A DNA stretch of 46,371 bases from Planctomycetota bacterium (GTDB lineage Bacteria; Planctomycetota; UBA11346), in contig JBBRLJ010000040.1 of NCBI GenBank assembly GCA_038231435.1, forward strand, positions 1-46,371, in the 5' to 3' direction. Numbering within the stretch: position 1 is the first letter of the stretch; each line of letters begins with the position of its first letter. Positions 12,942-31,672 of this stretch are shown piece after piece. Both the position numbers and the translations under genes were made by a program. The notes beneath the pieces were generated by a model. The model did not search any database and was not told the origin of the DNA. It was given only the letters and a program-made list of their open reading frames with translations.

Positions 12942-13502
12942 TCACGGTGGCGGGAGACTGGGCTGACCACCCGAAGCCTGAGCGCGCAGCGCCTGGGGCA
13001 GCAGCCTGCCCCAGTACGCGTCGTACGGGTGGACGGTGGTGGCCCTGGCTCCCGCGGCGTCCTCCATGGGCAAGCCCGCGGCGGCCCACGCGAAGATCCC
13101 GCCATCGATGTCCACGACCTCGCGCCCGGTGGCGCCGAGCCGGCGCGCGAGCGCGCTCGAACGCGACCCGACCGCGCAGTAGGTGACGATGGGGCCCGCG
13201 GGAAGCCCCGCCGGCGGAGGCGCGCCCGGGTCGATGCGAATCGCCCCGCGCAGATGGCTGACCGCGAACTCGGCCTCGCTGCGCACGTCCAGGAGCGCCG
13301 GCACGATGCCACGTTCTCCGGACAAGCGCTTGGCGATGACCAGGGGCGGCTCCCTGCACACGTCTGGATAGGCGCGCGCGAGCTGCTCGCGCAGCGATGT
13401 CCAGTTCGGCTCGGGGGCGAACACGCGCAAACCCGCCACGATCAGCACGAACGTGGCCACCACCGCCGCGATAGCCGTGCCTCGCGCGCGACCGCGGCTC
13501 AC
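12942..13502 (-). CDS. Membrane-anchored rhodanese-like domain protein
   Basis: N-terminal hydrophobic helix; LLDVRSEAEFAVSHLRGA, YCAVGSRS, GGIFAW. Confidence 0.85.
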   Translation of the reverse strand: MSRGRARGTAIAAVVATFVLIVAGLRVFAPEPNWTSLREQLARAYPDVCREPPLVIAKRLSGERGIVPALLDVRSEAEFAVSHLRGAIRIDPGAPPPAGLPAGPIVTYCAVGSRSSALARRLGATGREVVDIDGGIFAWAAAGLPMEDAAGARATTVHPYDAYWGRLLPQALRAQASGGQPSLPPP

Positions 13503-16500
13503 GCCGCGCCCGCGCGGATCCGCCGCCGCAGGGCTTCGATCGCCAGCGCCTGGTCCTGCAGATCAGCGCCGAGCCCGAGCTCCGGGAATCCAGCGATCGC
13601 CGCATCGAGCTCGGCGAACAGGCGCTTGCGCCGCTCGATCGGCGCGCGCTCGGCGATCGGCCGCATCTCGATCAGCTCCTGGCGCATGCCGGCGCAACGC
13701 GAACGCTCGGAGGACACCGCCTCGCCGATCGACGCGAGTCCTTCGCGCAGCTCGCCTTCGGCATAGGCGGCGCCGCGCGCAGCCCCGAGAGAACACAGGG
13801 CGAGCACGCACTCCTCGAGTCTGCCCGCGCACTCGCGCGCGCGCCGCGCGAGGCCGAGCGCCATCACCCAGCGCGCGGCGTCCCCCGGCATCGCCTCGTC
13901 CCACGCACCCACCAGCGCCTGCGCGCGTTCGGCGGCGCGGCGCGCGTCCTCGGGCCGCGTCCCAGCCTCATCGAGCAGGCGCTGCTGCCCTTCGAGGTAG
14001 GAGTCCACCCGCGACGCGGCAGACCACGGCAGGCGCAGCGGCCATCCTGGACGCAGCAATCGCTCGCAGGTCTCGGCGGCGGCGCGCACCGCGATCACCG
14101 CAGCGAGCGACTTCGCCCCCTGCTTGAGGCGTTTGCGCAGCGGCTCGAGCCGGTCGGCGACGCGGGCGAGCAGCGCGTCGAAGCCTGGCGCTGCCGCATC
14201 CAGCGCCGATCGCGCGCGCGCGGACAGGTCGTTCCACGTCGGCTCGTCGACGATCCGCGCGCGCGCCACCGACATCAGCACCGACACCCCAAGCTGCCGC
14301 CGCAGGAGTCCATGGCGCGAGCCGGTGAGCGCCTCGACGCGCGCGGCCAGCGCGGCTGGGGCGGGAGCCAGGGCGAGGCCTTCGAGCCGCTCGGCGAACG
14401 CAGCCTCGAGCAGCGCATCGAGGCCATCGTCGTGCCACGACGACGCCGCCTCGGCGCTGGCGTACACCGCGCGGCGCGCGGCGACGCGCCCCTGCTCGTC
14501 GCGCGCGCGCGCAAGCGCGACATGGGCGTTGACGCCGTGCAGCGATACCATTCCGGGCAGCTCCCCTGGCCAGCCGCCTCCGCCGACGGTGTCCCAGCGC
14601 GCACGCAGCGCCGCGAGCCGATCCCCCTGCGTCTGCGCGTGCGCGGCCAGGAACACCGGATCGCGACCTTCGTACAACACGCCGCCGACGGAATCGCGGA
14701 TGCGGAAGCGCAGCCGGCAGTGGGGTGGGAGCGCGAGCGGATCCAGCGGCGGGAGCTTGACCGAGAAACGCTCGTGGACCACATCGCGCAGCGCGTCGCC
14801 AAGCGGGCCGACAGCGTCGTTCCCGACCCTGTTGCGCAGCTGGACGGCGAGCGCGCGCGCGGACTCGGCGAGCGGGATCAGGGCGCGGCGCACGTCCTTC
14901 GGCGCCAGCTGCAGATAGGCCGCGACGATCTCGTCGATCCAGCCCGGGATCGCCCACTCCAGGCGCGCGGTATCGATGCGCGGCACCTCGTGCTCGCGCG
15001 CCTCCAGCGTCGCGCCGTCGCGCTCGTCGCCGGGCGCGAATAGGTAGTGCAGTACGAAGCGCGCACCACCCATGGCCAGCTCCTCTGGAAAACCGTCGTC
15101 GGCCCGTGCTGCGGCCTCTGGTGGCACCAGATCGGCGAGGCGCATGCGCAGGGCGTCCTCACCATGCTCGCGCAGCCAGCGGCCGAGCGCGTCCGTAGAG
15201 GCGATGACTGGCGCGCCCGCAACACCGAGACCCAGCTTCTCACGGTAGCAGCGCTCGAAGGCGGCTTCGTCGACCCACAAAGCCGGATCGCGCAGACGAT
15301 GGCGCAGACGCGCCGCGCGCTCGAACAGCTCGTGGTTGCCAGCAACCACCGCGAAGGCACGGTCGCGCCCGAGATCCTGCGCCCCCTCTGCCGAGCACAG
15401 CGCCTCGCGCACGAACACCGCCGTGGCGTCGACCGGATCGACGCGCTCGTATGGCACCGGGCGGCCATCGCGCACCGGCAATCCCTTCCAGGTGACGGTC
15501 TCGGTGCACACCACCTGGCGCCGGCGCGGATTCCAGCGCGGATCGCGATGGCGGCGCTTGACGCGGTCGCCGGCGATCGACACCACCCATTCGGGATCGA
15601 TCGGCGCGCACAGCCGCGCGAACAGCCGGCTGGTCTCCACCACTTCGCACGCCACCAGCCACGGGGGGACGGGCGGACCACGCTTGCCGACTTGTTGATC
15701 CTTGGCCGCGCCAGGCCTCGCCGCGCGCTCGTCGTTCTTCCCCAACCTCAGGGCGCTTCCGGGATGGACGTGCATGATGCGATCCCCGGCGCCGCGGTAG
15801 GCCTTCTTCTCGCGGTCGTACATCAGCACGTTGCCGATCATGCCCGCGAGCACCGCGCGGTGCACGCGATCGAGCGGCCAACGCTCGGGCTCGTGCCCGG
15901 CGGCTGGGATCTTGCCGGCGTGCACGCGCGATTCCCGCAAACTGCGCCACAGCTGATGGCGCACGTCGGCCCATTCACGCATGCGCCGGAAACCGAGGAA
16001 CGACGCCGTGCACAACCGGGACCGCGCCGAGTTGGATGGCGCCGCCTGGTATAGGTCCCACAGGCGCAGCACGGTGGCGAGATCGCCTGCCTCATGGGCC
16101 AGCTGTGCATGCGCGGCATCGGCCTTCGCCTCCTGCCCGAGCGGACGCACGCGCGGATCCTGCACCGACAGGAATGCCGAGATGGTACAGGCCTCGTGCG
16201 CCACGCCTTCATCGACGCCCGCGAGCAGGATGCGCCCGACCTGCGGATCGGCGGGGATCGCGGCCAGGGCGCGGCCCAATTTCGACAAGCCGGCGTGCGG
16301 TAGGCGATCCGGGATGTGCGGCGTGCGGGGTGCGGCGTGCGGCGAGGACTTCTCGTTGGATACGTCCGTCAGCGCGCCGAGTTCATCCAACAGCACTCTC
16401 GCCTGCTGCCAGGCGTGCGGAGAGGGCGCGTCGAGCCACGGGAAATCCTCGGGTTCGCCCAGGCCCATCGCCAGGCACGACAGCGCCACGCCGGCGAGGT

Positions 16501-17833
16501 TCGAGCGCAGGATCTCGGGGGTGGTGAAGGGATCGCGTTTGGCAAAATCGTCTTCCGGGAACAGCCGCACGCACACGCCTGCCTGTACGCGTCCGGCGCG
16601 GCCGGCGCGCTGCAGGCAGCTCGCCTGCGACACCGGCTCGATCGGCAGGCGCTCGGTGCGGGTCGAGGCCTGGTAGCGCTTCACGCGCGCCAGCCCGGCA
16701 TCGACGACATAGCCGATGCCGGGAATGGTCAGCGAGGTCTCGGCGATGTTGGTGGCGAGCACGATCTTGCGGCCACGCGCGGGCGCGAAGACGCGCTGCT
16801 GCTCACCGGCGCTGAGCCTGCCGAAAAGCCCGAGCACGGTCGCGCCATGCAGCTCGCTCAACCGCCGCGAGGCCTCGATGATGTCGCGCTCGGTGGGCAG
16901 GAAGCACAGCACGTCCCCCGGGCCACCCTCGCGGTGGATGTCTTCGACCGCCTGCACCACGGCGCCCTGGTAGCCGACGTCCTCGTCGTCGGGCGCGCGG
17001 TAGCGGATCTCGACCGGGAAGGTGCGGCCCGAGACCGCGACGATCGGCGCCGGCGATCCGCCGCTGGCGAAATACGCCGCGAAGCGCTCAGCCTCGATCG
17101 AGGCCGACGATACGGCAACCACCAGTTCGGGCCGCCGCTCGCGTAACCGGCGCACCATGCCGAGCAGCAAATCGATGTTGAGGCTGCGCTCGTGCGCCTC
17201 GTCGATGATGATCGCCTCGTAGCGCGCGAGCAGACGGTCGTTCGCCGCCTCGGCGAGCAGCAGCCCGTCGGTCATCACCCGCAGCAGGGTGTCGGCACCG
17301 GCGCGGTCGTCGAAGCGCACGCTGTGGGCTACCACGCCCTCGGCCGCGGCGGTCTCAGAGCGGATGCGCGCGGACATCGCGTACGCCGCCACGCGGCGTG
17401 GCTGGGTGAGCGCGATCATGCCGCGGCGGCCGTAGCCGGCCTCGAGCAGCATCTTCGGCAGCTGGGTGGTCTTGCCGGATCCGGTCTCGCCGGTGAGCAC
17501 GAATACGCCGCGGGAGCGGATCAGATCGAGGATGGGCGCGCGATGCGCGGACACCGGCAGGGCCTCGGGATACTCGAGGACCAGCGGCAGCGCACCCCTG
17601 CGCGCCGCTTCCGCGCAGCTGGTCTCGACGCGAGCGGCGACAGCGGCCAGTTCGCGATCGATGGGGGCGCCTCGGGCGAGGCGTTCCGCGGCGGCTGTAA
17701 GACGGTGCTCGGCCCACAAGCGGTCGGGCACCATGCAGGCGGCGAGCCGGGCGCCGAGTTCGGCTACGGTATGGCTAGGTGGCGGCGACGCCTGCCCAGA
17801 GGGCGGAGAAGAAGCTGGCGATGAGTCGCTCAT
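13499..17833 (-). CDS. hrpA: ATP-dependent DEAH-box RNA helicase HrpA
   Basis: GETGSGKTTQLPK, TQPRRVAA, IIDEAHERSLNID, ATNIAETSLTIPG, QRAGRAGR; HrpA-like C-terminal region (YLFAPGDERDGATL). Confidence 0.9.
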   Translation of the reverse strand: MSDSSPASSPPSGQASPPPSHTVAELGARLAACMVPDRLWAEHRLTAAAERLARGAPIDRELAAVAARVETSCAEAARRGALPLVLEYPEALPVSAHRAPILDLIRSRGVFVLTGETGSGKTTQLPKMLLEAGYGRRGMIALTQPRRVAAYAMSARIRSETAAAEGVVAHSVRFDDRAGADTLLRVMTDGLLLAEAANDRLLARYEAIIIDEAHERSLNIDLLLGMVRRLRERRPELVVAVSSASIEAERFAAYFASGGSPAPIVAVSGRTFPVEIRYRAPDDEDVGYQGAVVQAVEDIHREGGPGDVLCFLPTERDIIEASRRLSELHGATVLGLFGRLSAGEQQRVFAPARGRKIVLATNIAETSLTIPGIGYVVDAGLARVKRYQASTRTERLPIEPVSQASCLQRAGRAGRVQAGVCVRLFPEDDFAKRDPFTTPEILRSNLAGVALSCLAMGLGEPEDFPWLDAPSPHAWQQARVLLDELGALTDVSNEKSSPHAAPRTPHIPDRLPHAGLSKLGRALAAIPADPQVGRILLAGVDEGVAHEACTISAFLSVQDPRVRPLGQEAKADAAHAQLAHEAGDLATVLRLWDLYQAAPSNSARSRLCTASFLGFRRMREWADVRHQLWRSLRESRVHAGKIPAAGHEPERWPLDRVHRAVLAGMIGNVLMYDREKKAYRGAGDRIMHVHPGSALRLGKNDERAARPGAAKDQQVGKRGPPVPPWLVACEVVETSRLFARLCAPIDPEWVVSIAGDRVKRRHRDPRWNPRRRQVVCTETVTWKGLPVRDGRPVPYERVDPVDATAVFVREALCSAEGAQDLGRDRAFAVVAGNHELFERAARLRHRLRDPALWVDEAAFERCYREKLGLGVAGAPVIASTDALGRWLREHGEDALRMRLADLVPPEAAARADDGFPEELAMGGARFVLHYLFAPGDERDGATLEAREHEVPRIDTARLEWAIPGWIDEIVAAYLQLAPKDVRRALIPLAESARALAVQLRNRVGNDAVGPLGDALRDVVHERFSVKLPPLDPLALPPHCRLRFRIRDSVGGVLYEGRDPVFLAAHAQTQGDRLAALRARWDTVGGGGWPGELPGMVSLHGVNAHVALARARDEQGRVAARRAVYASAEAASSWHDDGLDALLEAAFAERLEGLALAPAPAALAARVEALTGSRHGLLRRQLGVSVLMSVARARIVDEPTWNDLSARARSALDAAAPGFDALLARVADRLEPLRKRLKQGAKSLAAVIAVRAAAETCERLLRPGWPLRLPWSAASRVDSYLEGQQRLLDEAGTRPEDARRAAERAQALVGAWDEAMPGDAARWVMALGLARRARECAGRLEECVLALCSLGAARGAAYAEGELREGLASIGEAVSSERSRCAGMRQELIEMRPIAERAPIERRKRLFAELDAAIAGFPELGLGADLQDQALAIEALRRRIRAGAA

Positions 17834-17964
17834 GCGGGAGACGGAGCATAGGGCGATTCCGCGCTATGCACTCGGCCCGCAGCGCGCCGGGGAGGAACCA
17901 CTAGTCTGGAACATGGTCGGGAAATTGGCTGGATCCGTCAGCTGCGATATCTATCGTCCCGCGC

Positions 17965-18015
17965 ATGCCGACCGTCGCCGCCATCGCGTATTACCGTCCA
18001 TACCGCTTCGACTAG
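17965..18015 (+). CDS. Putative tyrS leader (attenuator) peptide MPTVAAIAYYRPYRFD
   Basis: 16-codon ORF with TAT-TAC and a third TAC directly upstream of the terminator and tyrS; not in the ORF track (too short). Confidence 0.75.
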   Translation: MPTVAAIAYYRPYRFD

Positions 18016-18073
18016 GGGTCCGGCGAACGCATCGCGCACGCACCCCTGGTACCCGCCAGGGGTTTTTCGTTTC
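18012..18073 (+). promoter_or_regulatory. Transcription attenuator (terminator/antiterminator) of tyrS
   Basis: Terminator ACCCCTGG-TACCCG-CCAGGGGT + TTTTCGTTT (18042-18072); alternative pairing CTAGGGGT (18012-18019) with ACCCCTGG (18042-18049). Confidence 0.75.
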
Positions 18074-18106
18074 ACCCACTTCCGCACGCATCGCCACCGG
18101 ACCCAC

Positions 18107-19357
18107 ATGACCGACAACCTCTTCGACATCCTGAGCGCGCGCGGCTTCGTCGCCCAATCCACCGAGGCGGCGATCAAGGATCGGCTGGCCTCGCCTGTCA
18201 CCGCCTACATCGGCTTCGATCCGACCGCGGACAGCCTGCACGTCGGTTCGCTGGTGCCGATCATGGGACTCTACTGGCTCCAGCAGTGCGGGCATCGTCC
18301 GCTGGTGCTGGTCGGCGGCGCGACCGCGCTGGTCGGCGACCCGTCGGGCAAGAGCGACATGCGCAAGATGCTCTCCCGCGAGGAGATCGATGCCAACGCC
18401 TCGGCCATCGCGAAGCAGATCGCGCGCGTGGTGCGCTTCGACGCCCCGGCCCAGGTCACGCCGGCCGGAGCGAAGCTGGTGAACAACGCCGGATGGCTCG
18501 CGGATCTGAACTGGATCCAGCTGCTGCGCGAGGTCGGACCGTGCTTCAGCGTCAACCGCATGCTGAGCATGGATTCGGTGAAGGGCCGCATGGAGTCCGG
18601 GGGCATCACCTTCCTCGAGTTCAATTACATGGTCATGCAGGCCTACGATTTCCTGCATCTCCACCGCAGCGAGCGCTGCACCCTGCAGATGGGCGGACAG
18701 GACCAGTGGGGCAACATCGTCATGGGCATCGAGCTGGTGCGCCGACTCGACGACGCGCCGGTCGCCGGCCTGACCTTCCCCCTGGTCACGAAATCCGATG
18801 GCGGGAAGTTCGGCAAGTCGGAGAAGGGCAACATCTGGCTCTCCGCCGAGCGCACACCGATCTACGATTTCTACCAGTTCTGGCGCAATGCCGCCGATGC
18901 CGACGTGCGCAGGTTCCTCGGCTTCTTCACCATCATGCCGATGGAGGAGGTCGACCGGCTGTGCGCTGGCGGCGGCGAAAAACTGAACGCGGCGAAGGAG
19001 GTCCTGGCCTTCGAGGTCACTCGGATCATCCACGGCGAGGCCGCTGCGGAGCAGGCCCGATCGGATGCGCGGCGCGCCTTCGGGGCGGCGCAGGACATCG
19101 GGGGCGACAGCATCCCGCACGCGGATCTGGCGGCGGGTGAACTCGACGCAGGCATCGGCCTGCTCGCCCTGTTGGTGCGCGCCAAGCTCGCGGCCTCGAA
19201 CAGCGAGGCGCGCCGCCTGGTCGAGGGCGGGGGTGTGCGCATCCATGAGCGGGCTGAGAATGATCCGGCCGCGACGGTCAAGCCTACCGATATCGTCGAT
19301 GGACGGGTGGTGCTACGGGCGGGCAAGAAGCGCATGTTCCGCTTCGACGTGCGCTGA
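18107..19357 (+). CDS. tyrS: Tyrosine--tRNA ligase
   Basis: YIGFDPTADSLHVG (HIGH), EFNYMVMQAYDF, QMGGQDQWGNI, GKFGKSE (KMSKS), C-terminal S4 domain. Confidence 0.97.
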   Translation: MTDNLFDILSARGFVAQSTEAAIKDRLASPVTAYIGFDPTADSLHVGSLVPIMGLYWLQQCGHRPLVLVGGATALVGDPSGKSDMRKMLSREEIDANASAIAKQIARVVRFDAPAQVTPAGAKLVNNAGWLADLNWIQLLREVGPCFSVNRMLSMDSVKGRMESGGITFLEFNYMVMQAYDFLHLHRSERCTLQMGGQDQWGNIVMGIELVRRLDDAPVAGLTFPLVTKSDGGKFGKSEKGNIWLSAERTPIYDFYQFWRNAADADVRRFLGFFTIMPMEEVDRLCAGGGEKLNAAKEVLAFEVTRIIHGEAAAEQARSDARRAFGAAQDIGGDSIPHADLAAGELDAGIGLLALLVRAKLAASNSEARRLVEGGGVRIHERAENDPAATVKPTDIVDGRVVLRAGKKRMFRFDVR

Positions 19358-27674: not shown

Positions 27675-29734
27675 TCGACGACCGCGACGCCGCCGACCTC
27701 GTGGATCGACACTTCGATGGTGGCCTCGACGCCGACGAAGCCGAGCGGCTGATGGCGTGGCTGCGCGAGGATCCGGCGCGCGTACGCGATCTGGTGCGCG
27801 CCGCCAGGATGCACGGCGACCTGCGCCACGCGGTTCGCGCGCGCGCGGCCGCTTCGGGCACGAGCGTCGGACATGATCGCGCGTCATCGTCGAGGCGATC
27901 GTCTCAGATCCAGACCACGGCACGGCCAGGCTCTTGGCGCTCCGCGAGACCATGGATCGCCGCGGCTGCCGCGAGCCTGATCCTAGCGCTGTGCTGGACG
28001 CTACGGCACGGCGGCGGCGAGCAGTCACCAGCGATCGCCGAAGTGGTGGCGGTAGCCACTGGCAGCGGACCGGCGCCGCTGATCGCGCGGCCCGGATCCG
28101 ACCCGATAGCGCTGGTCGCCGGCACGCGCGTGAGCGCGGACGACCGCATCCTTACCCGCTCAGCCAGCGTGACTGTGCGCTCCACGCGCGATGCGACCCG
28201 CTTCGAGCTCGCCCCCGAGACCACCGCGTCGTGGACGACGGAGAATGGATCCCCGCGCGTGGCGCTCGCGCACGGACGTCTGCGCGCAGCGGTGGCCAAG
28301 CAGGCGCCTGGATCGGTCCTGACGCTGAGCACCCCGCACGCGCTCGTCGAAGTCATCGGCACCGCATTCGTGCTCGCGGTGGACTCCTCCGCGACGAGCC
28401 TCGAGGTGTCCGAAGGCAAGGTGCGGTTCACGCGCCTGCATGACGGAACCGTTGCCGAAGTGGCGGCGGGAGCGCGCGCGTCGTGCGATGGCGAGGCGGC
28501 GCCGGTCTCGCCCTACCAGCGCTGGGCTCGCGGTCCGAGCGGCGATCCGGGCTTCTTCCCCATCGGGGTGTGGTCGCAGGATCCGAGCCTGGCGCAACGC
28601 TATCGCGACGCCGGTTTCACCTGCTACGTCGGCCTCCCTGATGGCCCGACCATCGCGCAGCTCGACAGCCTGCGCTCCGCAGGCATGCCCGTGGTGTGCG
28701 AGCAGAACGCCGCCGCCTTGGACGACCTCGATGACCGAGCCATCATCGGCTGGCTCGGCTCGACGCGTCCCGACGACGCTCCCGATGCCGGCGGCGACGC
28801 GAGGCCCGATCGCATCAGCACCATCGGAGCCGGCGCGCACGCCCCGGCCCCGGCGGGAGATTCCCTCGCGCGCTATCGCGACGAGGTCGCCCACGATGCG
28901 ACCCGGCCGGTGCTGCTGACCCTCGGCCGAGGCGTGGCGTGGGACGAATGGTACGGCCGCGGCACCCGCACCGGCCATCCCGGGGATTACCAGCAGTACG
29001 CCCAGGGCTGCGATCTCGCCAGCTTCGCCATCGATCCCATCGCGCAGCGCGAGATCTCGGGCGAGCTCTGGCGCGTCGCCTCGGGAGTCGATCGCCTGCG
29101 CGGCTGGGCCGGAGCCAAGCCGGTCTGGTGTTTCATCTCATGCGCGCGCTCGGCATCCGGAAGCGGTCCCACTTCTGAGCAGCTGCGCAGCGAAGCATGG
29201 ATGGCACTGATCCATGGCGCGAAGGGCCTGATCTTCTCGAGCGATGCGTCGCCGAGTTCCACGCCGGCACCGCTGCCAGAACCCCTGCCAGTGGATGCTT
29301 CCTCGCAACCGGCCCCGGCGGTGACGGCGACGCCGCTCTTCGAGGACCCGGCGACGTTGGCCGCGGTGGCCGCGATGAACCACCGCATCGCGGCGCTCGC
29401 GCCGGCCCTCAACGCACCGAGTCTCCCCGCCATTCAGGTCACATCATCCAACCCGTCGGTTCCCGTCGCGGCCATGCTCAAGCGCGATGGCGCCACGCGC
29501 TACGTGTTCGCGATCGCGATGCGCGACGGCGCCACCACCGCGGCCTTCCCGGTTCCGGATCTCGCCACGGACGCGGTGATCGAGGTGCTCGATGAAGACC
29601 GGCGCATCGTACCCGAGCGCGGCCGGTTCTCGGACGTGTTCGCCGCTTACGGTGTCCATCTGTATGCCATCCGCGCGGCGGACATGCCATCGACCGCGCA
29701 GAAGACTGCGCCCACAACCAACACGAAACCGTAG
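27671..29734 (+). CDS. FecR-domain anti-sigma factor fused to a C-terminal glycoside-hydrolase-like domain
   Basis: GTG overlaps the sigma stop; N-terminal anti-sigma helices, TM segment WIAAAAASLILALCW, FecR motif TPHALVEVIGTAF..LEVSEGKV, then about 400 aa beginning FFPIGVW. Confidence 0.8.
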   Translation: MIDDRDAADLVDRHFDGGLDADEAERLMAWLREDPARVRDLVRAARMHGDLRHAVRARAAASGTSVGHDRASSSRRSSQIQTTARPGSWRSARPWIAAAAASLILALCWTLRHGGGEQSPAIAEVVAVATGSGPAPLIARPGSDPIALVAGTRVSADDRILTRSASVTVRSTRDATRFELAPETTASWTTENGSPRVALAHGRLRAAVAKQAPGSVLTLSTPHALVEVIGTAFVLAVDSSATSLEVSEGKVRFTRLHDGTVAEVAAGARASCDGEAAPVSPYQRWARGPSGDPGFFPIGVWSQDPSLAQRYRDAGFTCYVGLPDGPTIAQLDSLRSAGMPVVCEQNAAALDDLDDRAIIGWLGSTRPDDAPDAGGDARPDRISTIGAGAHAPAPAGDSLARYRDEVAHDATRPVLLTLGRGVAWDEWYGRGTRTGHPGDYQQYAQGCDLASFAIDPIAQREISGELWRVASGVDRLRGWAGAKPVWCFISCARSASGSGPTSEQLRSEAWMALIHGAKGLIFSSDASPSSTPAPLPEPLPVDASSQPAPAVTATPLFEDPATLAAVAAMNHRIAALAPALNAPSLPAIQVTSSNPSVPVAAMLKRDGATRYVFAIAMRDGATTAAFPVPDLATDAVIEVLDEDRRIVPERGRFSDVFAAYGVHLYAIRAADMPSTAQKTAPTTNTKP

Positions 29735-31598: not shown

Positions 31599-31672
31599 TG
31601 GAGGCGCCACCCAGAATCGAACTGGGATATACGGATTTGCAATCCGCTGCGTAGCCATTCCGCCATGGCGCC
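31599..31672 (-). tRNA. tRNA-Cys (GCA)
   Basis: GGCGCCATGGCGGAATGGCTACGCAGCGGATTGCAAATCCGTATATCCCAGTTCGATTCTGGGTGGCGCCTCCA; 74 nt cloverleaf, U73 discriminator, encoded CCA. Confidence 0.97.

Follow-up and report, generated by a model that had tools for sequence, protein, structure and literature searches.

In Deinococcus deserti, 14 putative leaderless attenuator peptides have been listed, several of them on synthetase genes (de Groot et al. 2014, PMC4007540). Deide_00051, located before tyrS, encodes 13 residues with one Tyr, and its start at the ATG was mapped by RNA-seq (PMC4007540, Tables S9-S10). The same source describes Deide_18471, a 16-residue Phe/Tyr/Trp leader before a DAHP synthase gene, and a T-box that controls valS of D. 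deserti. The kind of switch treated here is already known, a leaderless tyrS leader peptide having been proposed for D. deserti in 2014 (PMC4007540). A sequence-only reading of our locus had guessed that no Tyr-leader attenuator had been described for tyrS; this guess was wrong, because Table S9 of PMC4007540 lists the D. deserti tyrS leader.

In Rhodobacterales, cysS is preceded by uORFC-8-2, which has tandem cognate codons (PMC8632094), and leaders precede leuS, trpS, thrS, and alaS in Streptomyces, those of leuS, trpS, and thrS being reported as leaderless (PMC1262725, PMC8079986). These leaders resemble the one described here in being short and carrying cognate codons, but they concern other amino acids and phyla, and tyrS and valS are not mentioned in the cited sections. 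At DAHP synthase genes, Phe/Tyr uORF candidates have been reported (PMC6429828, PMC8632094), and aroR of C. glutamicum, a Phe-Tyr-Phe leader, was reported to respond to Phe and not to Tyr (PMC11802643; also PMC4046766). Leaders of the aroR type combine a multivalent aromatic leader with a terminator, as does the aroF2 element of the family studied here, and control biosynthesis instead of tyrS. In the ilvB leader of S. coelicolor, codon mutations were without effect (PMC1262725). The T-box of Bacillus tyrS acts on the same gene and answers the same signal, uncharged tRNA-Tyr, but binds the tRNA directly without translation (PMC1262725), and it has no match at our locus. Our literature searches found no attenuator paper for Planctomycetota, PMC4833913 covering, in the section concerned, leader-gene spacing only. 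No valS leader-peptide attenuator was found either, and wider surveys or their supplements may list further cases; general attenuator searches met no transfer of an attenuator from aroF to tyrS.

The tyrS locus analyzed here is, by description, like that of D. deserti in that the tyrS transcript probably begins with a short leaderless ORF and in the attenuation proposed for it. Further points in common are 16-residue aromatic leaders at DAHP synthase genes and the occurrence of such leaders at more than one synthetase of an organism. It differs in its Tyr-Tyr pair, its defined terminator and antiterminator, its phylum, and its start, which was inferred from sequence; in addition, the tyrS and aroF leaders are probably the same cassette (compare PMC4007540). 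With the pheST (pheM) attenuator of E. coli and the classical trp, his, and phe attenuators it shares cognate codons and mutually exclusive antiterminator and terminator, and pheST is likewise a case of synthetase control (PMC11802643, PMC1262725; model in PMC1183508).

Anatomy of the tyrS leader

The window is a stretch of 46,371 nucleotides from a Planctomycetota genome (G000; contig JBBRLJ010000040.1 of GCA_038231435.1). The features around tyrS are as follows.

13499..17833, minus strand: hrpA helicase gene, divergent neighbor, given for context (TIGR01967, 872 bits)
17930..17935, plus strand: possible weak -35 hexamer, separated by 16 nt from the -10-like hexamer (low confidence)
17952..17957, plus strand: putative -10-like hexamer TATCGT, with 7 nt between it and the ATG of the uORF (from TAnnnT enrichment)
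17965..18015, plus strand: leader uORF, 16 codons and TAG, length kept in G001
17989..17994, plus strand: putative regulatory Tyr-Tyr codons TAT TAC (Tyr9-Tyr10), kept in G001, within the antiterminator-forming window
18001..18003, plus strand: third Tyr codon TAC (Tyr13), at the margin of the predicted sensing window, with a footprint-dependent outcome
18011..18050, plus strand: antiterminator predicted by folding, 18011-18019 (stop codon included) pairing with 18042-18050 over 9 bp
18042..18072, plus strand: intrinsic terminator, formed by a hairpin (18042-18063) and a U tract that runs to 18072 (terminator scan, folding)
18107..19357, plus strand: tyrS, tyrosyl-tRNA synthetase gene, the putative regulated gene (TIGR00234, 386 bits; cut-off 114)

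The ORF at 18107 gave the only TyrS match in G000. hrpA is also the divergent neighbor of tyrS (75% identity over 165 aa) in G001, which, like G002, belongs to the same genus as G000. The uORF starts with the ATG at 17965, has the sense codons MPTVAAIAYYRPYRFD, and ends with the TAG at 18013-18015; the two codons of the Tyr-Tyr pair stand eight and seven codons ahead of this stop. The terminator stem has nine pairs (-16.3 kcal/mol), and its tail, U5-CG-U3, ends 35 nt before the tyrS ATG. In the antiterminator, the outer helix closes an inner helix, 18021-18025/18035-18040.

These elements agree with the sequence-only reading. The uORF with its tandem and third Tyr codons stands before tyrS as claimed, and the terminator proposed about 35 nt ahead of the tyrS ATG was confirmed by the scan, which found one site against 0.1 expected in shuffles. 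Folding also bore out the claim that a segment spanning the stop codon pairs with the 5' arm of the terminator, so that the two structures are mutually exclusive. A T-box had been named as a point to check, and the Rfam scan of the window gave no T-box and no leader family at the gathering threshold; its sole match was a tRNA gene at 31602-31672 on the minus strand. That reading lacked the probably leaderless nature of the uORF, the cassette common with aroF2, and the marginal place of the third Tyr codon in the predicted sensing window.

To estimate chance, the 208 nt preceding the terminator were resampled 20,000 times by a first-order Markov model. A correctly placed ATG uORF with Tyr-Tyr appeared in 0.18% of the resamplings, and in 0.06% when the third Tyr was included. 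Among 2096 intergenic upstream ATG sORFs of G000, nine contain Tyr-Tyr, and the tyrS leader alone adds TAnnnT 5-11 nt upstream. The whole 196-nt upstream region did not fold better than shuffles (z -0.13). Neither blastn nor a pattern scan detected other copies of the cassette in G000.

A sigma-70 consensus scan called no promoter ahead of the uORF. In G000, TAnnnT was found 5-11 nt before the ATG at 320 of 3113 gene starts predicted by crude in-house gene calls and at 167 of 25390 internal ATGs, a 15-fold difference (ca. 10% of predicted gene-start ATGs against 0.7% of internal ones), which suggests that leaderless transcription is frequent in this lineage. Because this layout is enriched at gene starts, the tyrS uORF is probably leaderless or near-leaderless. 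A similar arrangement of hexamer, 16 nt, hexamer, 7 nt, and ATG lies directly before pheS in G000. The -10-like hexamer is less clear in the tyrS leader of G001, and many other family members have one shortly ahead of the tyrS ATG itself (seen by eye, uncounted).

Predicted folding switch and proposed mechanism

The effect of a ribosome on the leader was modeled by masking 12 nt from the A-site codon, with the nascent RNA taken as the transcript from which the terminator 3' arm is absent. Sequestration of the terminator 5' arm was scored on a scale of 0-9, and several footprints and tail lengths were tried. In the nascent RNA of G000, the 5' arm was sequestered with the ribosome at every codon up to 12, and the scores from Tyr13 to the stop were 7, 3, 1, 0, and 0. 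A ribosome on either codon of the Tyr-Tyr pair gave a score of 9, and one at the stop a score of 0 (G000) or 2 (G001); the nascent antiterminator fold had -19 to -21.5 kcal/mol.

For the full-length RNA with the ribosome at the stop, the terminator had a probability of 0.985 in G000 and 0.989 in G001. The values for G000 were 0.76 at Tyr9 and 0.20 at Tyr10, ranging across footprints and tails from 0.33 to 0.82 and from 0.03 to 0.73, respectively. Those for G001 were 0.02-0.07 at both Tyr codons and 0.99-1.00 at the stop. Since the full-length equilibrium of G000 at Tyr9 still favors the terminator, the switch would need co-transcriptional kinetics. With the ribosome at the third Tyr, the terminator probability varied from 0.00 to 0.99 with the footprint assumed. 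A looser terminator measure, under which a small loop hairpin counted as well, had given 0.90 and 0.80 in G000 and put many aroF2 leaders at 1.00; the strict measures reported here supersede it.

The geometry thus modeled fits a stall at Tyr-Tyr that frees the antiterminator and an arrival at the stop that masks the antiterminator strand, and the masked-ribosome folds gave the antiterminator at Tyr-Tyr and the terminator at the stop, as the mechanism of the sequence-only reading requires. No dominant protector hairpin appeared in the nascent fold. Leaders of classical attenuators are led by a Shine-Dalgarno sequence and have a separate pause or protector hairpin; the tyrS leader differs from them in this lack and in its leaderless appearance.

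We propose the following course of events. Transcription would begin at or just ahead of the uORF ATG, so that the ribosome would load on a leaderless mRNA. When Tyr-tRNA is ample, the ribosome would reach the last codons or the stop and cover 18011-18019; the terminator could then form, and RNA polymerase would halt at ca. 18065-18072. When Tyr-tRNA is short, the ribosome would be expected to stall at TAT-TAC, 18011-18019 would capture the terminator 5' arm ahead of the synthesis of the 3' arm, and tyrS would be transcribed. The outcome would be a feedback on the charging of tRNA-Tyr, and the leader most likely raises tyrS expression when charged tRNA-Tyr is scarce. A cognate uORF, an intrinsic terminator between it and the gene, a mutually exclusive antiterminator, and the predicted stall and stop geometry are all present. 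On these predictions, the element is very probably a functional ribosome-mediated, Tyr-tRNA-sensing transcription attenuator, with a leader that is probably leaderless. The attenuation mechanism of the sequence-only reading thereby gains computational support from conservation in a congener, the predicted flip between Tyr-Tyr and stop, and the cassette family described below.

The fold obtained with no ribosome counts against the attenuator reading: in G000, the nascent RNA forms the antiterminator, and the full-length terminator probability is 0.98. The leader might instead be a general translation sensor, its output set by ribosome initiation, dwell time at the stop, and coupling, with the Tyr codons as one input. 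The nascent antiterminator is predicted with no ribosome or with a ribosome anywhere up to codon ca. 12, so that any delay would give read-through, and the antiterminator strand overlaps the stop codon. Such a sensor, however, has no need of codons that match the gene, and these match in four sets (aromatic at aroF2, Tyr at tyrS, Val at valS, and Thr at thrS). At the other synthetases, 11 of 28 valS loci have a Val-rich uORF and 12 of 29 thrS loci a Thr-rich one; the other gene sets yielded 0-4 cases. This cognate match supports an attenuator. We therefore regard a general sensor as highly unlikely and retain Tyr-tRNA sensing as the reading of the tyrS leader.

Distribution of the tyrS leader and its relation to aroF2 leaders

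The family comprises 48 genomes, from which 43 tyrS loci were fetched; in 41 of them the upstream sequence was 150 nt or longer. All were judged by one rule, which asked for an ATG uORF 8-30 codons long with three or more Tyr codons and a stop 40-210 nt ahead of the gene. Two of these 41 loci passed, those of G000 and G001. TyrS of G001 is 77% identical to that of G000. The G001 leader also has 16 codons. Its peptide shows little similarity, but TAT-TAC and the antiterminator strand across the stop are retained, and the terminator is almost the same. The leader is absent at tyrS of G002, which is the sister of G001 in a TyrS+ValS+ThrS tree (support 1.0); its presence in G000 and G001 hence requires either a single gain with a loss or two gains. 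The conservation in relatives expected by the sequence-only reading thus held for the Tyr-Tyr pair and both helices in G001, but was confined to 2 of 41 family loci. A Tyr-Tyr uORF was found at none of 80 metagenome tyrS loci, a set in which two lacked a gene start, five had less than 100 nt upstream, several were family genomes repeated, and most were 44-50% identical. Tyr-containing ORFs lay upstream in 2 of 20 tyrS loci from other families.

This narrow distribution, with the absence from the sister genome G002, would also suit a relic that is inert or responds weakly: a cassette of promoter and leader before tyrS that gives fixed dampening and no Tyr response. The full-length equilibrium of G000 at Tyr9, which favors termination, points the same way, as do published leaders whose codons do not regulate (PMC1262725, PMC11802643). 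However, Tyr is the only aromatic residue in the sensing window of both tyrS leaders, whereas Phe or Trp occurs in each of the 24 aligned aroF2 leaders. TAT-TAC was kept while the rest of the peptide diverged, and, with TyrS differing by 23% between the two genomes, the frame length and both helices have stayed intact. A relic therefore seems improbable to us, and a responsive attenuator remains the preferred reading.

The family has two aroFGH (DAHP synthase) paralogues, aroF1 and aroF2; 70 of 74 aroFGH matches were examined, plus one more later. A uORF with at least three Phe/Trp/Tyr codons was found at 24 of 29 aroF2 loci and at none of 40 aroF1 loci, the aroF2 set having been drawn up after the leaders were seen and being equal to a protein-tree clade bar two outlying sequences. 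These leaders (L280-L313, L341) are leaderless-like and family-wide; at L302 the helices are kept and the leader has 12 codons with a single Phe. A length of 16 codons occurred in 17 of 25 leaders, and TAnnnT 5-11 nt upstream in 13 of 25. In the 24 leaders that were aligned, one divergent leader being left out, 105 of 107 aromatic codons stand at least five codons before the stop. Mean sequestration in aroF2 leaders was ca. 0.9 at such positions, against 0.13-0.31 in the last four. Their Tyr codons are TAT in 26 cases and TAC in five, while TAT makes up 21% of the Tyr codons genome-wide in G000.

In the alignment, the terminator had 97% paired cells and six double changes, a result reached by none of 500 shuffles. 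The antiterminator outer helix was 92% paired with one double change, and its score was reached by 10 of 500 shuffles, which is weak covariation. Since the aligned leaders come from kin and are not independent, the shuffle controls overstate these results. The covarying stems looked for in the sequence-only reading are thus found in the aroF2 leaders for the terminator, and only weakly there for the antiterminator. From these alignments, the aroF2 cassette appears to be a family-wide attenuator with covarying terminator pairs and mixed Phe/Trp/Tyr codons.

A search for the switch-core pattern over one genome per species gave five matches, all titled Planctomycetota: the G001 tyrS leader again, three sites before DAHP synthase genes with Phe/Trp/Tyr-rich uORFs of 16-17 codons, and one plain terminator. 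A covariance model trained on the 24 aroF2 leaders, with no tyrS sequence, gave full-length matches in the window, at 55.2 bits (E 2e-14), and in G001, at 48.1 bits (E 3e-12). No further significant full-length match was found among 79 sources (tyrS loci and valS, thrS, and leuS leaders). The next non-training matches across the family were one more aroF2 leader (37 bits) and ordinary terminators (at most 33 bits). Matches of at most 33 bits in G000 and its relatives were rejected as cassette copies, the 25 weaker ones inspected being ordinary terminators behind genes or tRNAs. When 23 candidates in each were scored, 144 genomes from beyond the family yielded no match to the model. A weaker match at L351 (G004:C19) has short ORFs upstream.

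Post-stop segments were also compared with the aroF2 leaders of other genera. The two tyrS elements scored 58.4 and 55.4, within the range of aroF2 leaders themselves (52.1-72.0); none of the 32 ordinary terminators of G000 scored as high (maximum mean 51.8). By this similarity, the nearest neighbor of the G002 aroF2 leader is the G001 tyrS leader. The latter scored 79 with the G002 aroF2 leader and 68 with the G000 tyrS leader, while the G000 tyrS leader tied at 68 with both. The nearest-neighbor test gave the right genus in 19 of 19 aroF2 cases. No aroF2 was found in G000 by tblastn (genome 87.6% complete), nor any aroFGH in G001 (genome 61% complete).

The same mechanism could have arisen independently, de novo from the generic CCCCUGG/CCAGGGG terminator, the likeness to aroF2 being convergence forced by pairing. 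The terminator style of the family is generic, ordinary terminators reaching 32-33 bits, which was counted against co-option; one ordinary gene end of G000 with GAC-TAG before such a terminator scores 32 bits. The leader ORF and spacer alone have no significant sequence similarity: a terminator-free sequence profile placed G000 at rank 4 (E 5.2) and did not list G001, and a genuine held-out aroF2 leader obtained only E 3.6. Against this stand the same 16-codon length and stop-to-arm spacing, the 55 and 48 bits of the tyrS elements compared with at most 33 for ordinary terminators, the fact that the aroF2 leader closest to both is that of a congener, and the tblastn result of no aroF2 in G000 itself. 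We thus consider an independent origin rather unlikely.

The tyrS leader differs from the aroF2 cassette in that Tyr is the sole aromatic in its sensing window and in that it sits before tyrS and not a DAHP synthase gene; we treat it as a derived relative of the cassette and not as a member. With some reserve, we judge it likely that the whole cassette was moved or copied from aroF2 to tyrS within one genus and was retuned from Phe/Trp/Tyr to Tyr only by few codons. That this recruitment happened twice independently is doubtful, the scores of 79 and 68 giving a weak hint of it.

Leaders at other genes and significance

Nineteen synthetase or synthetase-like genes of G000 were surveyed for cognate leaders, and valS and thrS also have them. 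Among 49 leaderless-like upstream sORFs of this genome compared by amino-acid skew, that of tyrS ranked 4th and those of valS and thrS 6th and 7th. The valS leader of G000 lies on the minus strand of C30 (ca. 29480-29600) before valS (C30:26633-29362), with family loci L054-L078. It has a leaderless-like Val run and a conserved GC hairpin terminator; the hairpin is present at 13 family loci, and 11 of 28 passed the Val rule. The rare codon GTA is over-used among the Val codons of these leaders (10 of 49, against 3% genome-wide). By folding, the switch was clear in G000 and one other of 12 valS leaders, and ambiguous in the rest. Between the valS terminator and valS, a palindromic repeat of the GGGGG-CTACG-GCCCCC type and short tandem heptamer arrays occupy the intergenic region (G000:C30, ca. 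29400-29470); such repeats and arrays also occur close to cysS and lysS and at a number of further intergenic sites.

The thrS leader of G000 is at C6:18896-18941 on the plus strand (family loci L081-L110). A CGA-ACT motif (Arg-Thr, rare codons) was found near the leader end at 22 of 30 thrS loci. In several leaders the Thr codon of this motif is the only one, and a U tract is often missing after the hairpin that follows. A leuS leader of G000 was rejected as a real attenuator because it was seen at no other of 30 loci and because Leu-rich uORFs are unspecific, occurring at 8 of 29 leuS and 5 of 41 tyrS loci.

Upstream of 11 biosynthetic genes of G000 (ilvB, aroF1, tyrA, hom, leuA, trpE, and others), no clear cognate attenuator was found. 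Short uORFs with CGA-CTT (Arg-Leu) lie before a leuA-like gene (C41:44061-45659, plus strand) and before leuS (G000:C22, 47372). On the minus strand of G000:C34, a uORF with Ile-Arg-Ile ends 119 nt before the gene of an HMGL-like enzyme (C34:48177-49787). We take the product of this gene to be citramalate-synthase-like, and the uORF is possibly an Ile leader; no U-tract terminator was seen. A 23-codon sORF with five Tyr codons lies upstream of an unannotated gene (C49:21674-22522, plus strand, of G000), with no -10-like hexamer by our rule. At L345 (G071:C59), a short uORF and a terminator precede an elongation-factor-G-like gene.

The leaders at tyrS, valS, and thrS extend leader-peptide attenuation of synthetases to a family of Planctomycetota. 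What the tyrS locus adds to the known kind of switch is the probable, recent transfer and retuning of the aroF2 cassette within one genus. One cassette appears to have been re-used recently, as an attenuator of aromatic biosynthesis in most of the family and as a synthetase attenuator tuned to Tyr alone in two congeneric genomes. Since the switch has ca. 110 nt and its two versions differ mainly in few codons, the change of specificity and of target gene is directly testable. The pair also allows one to ask whether Tyr codons alone drive attenuation, aroR being reportedly unresponsive to Tyr (PMC11802643). If the transfer is true, G000, G001, and G002 would form a natural series for the rewiring of regulatory RNAs.
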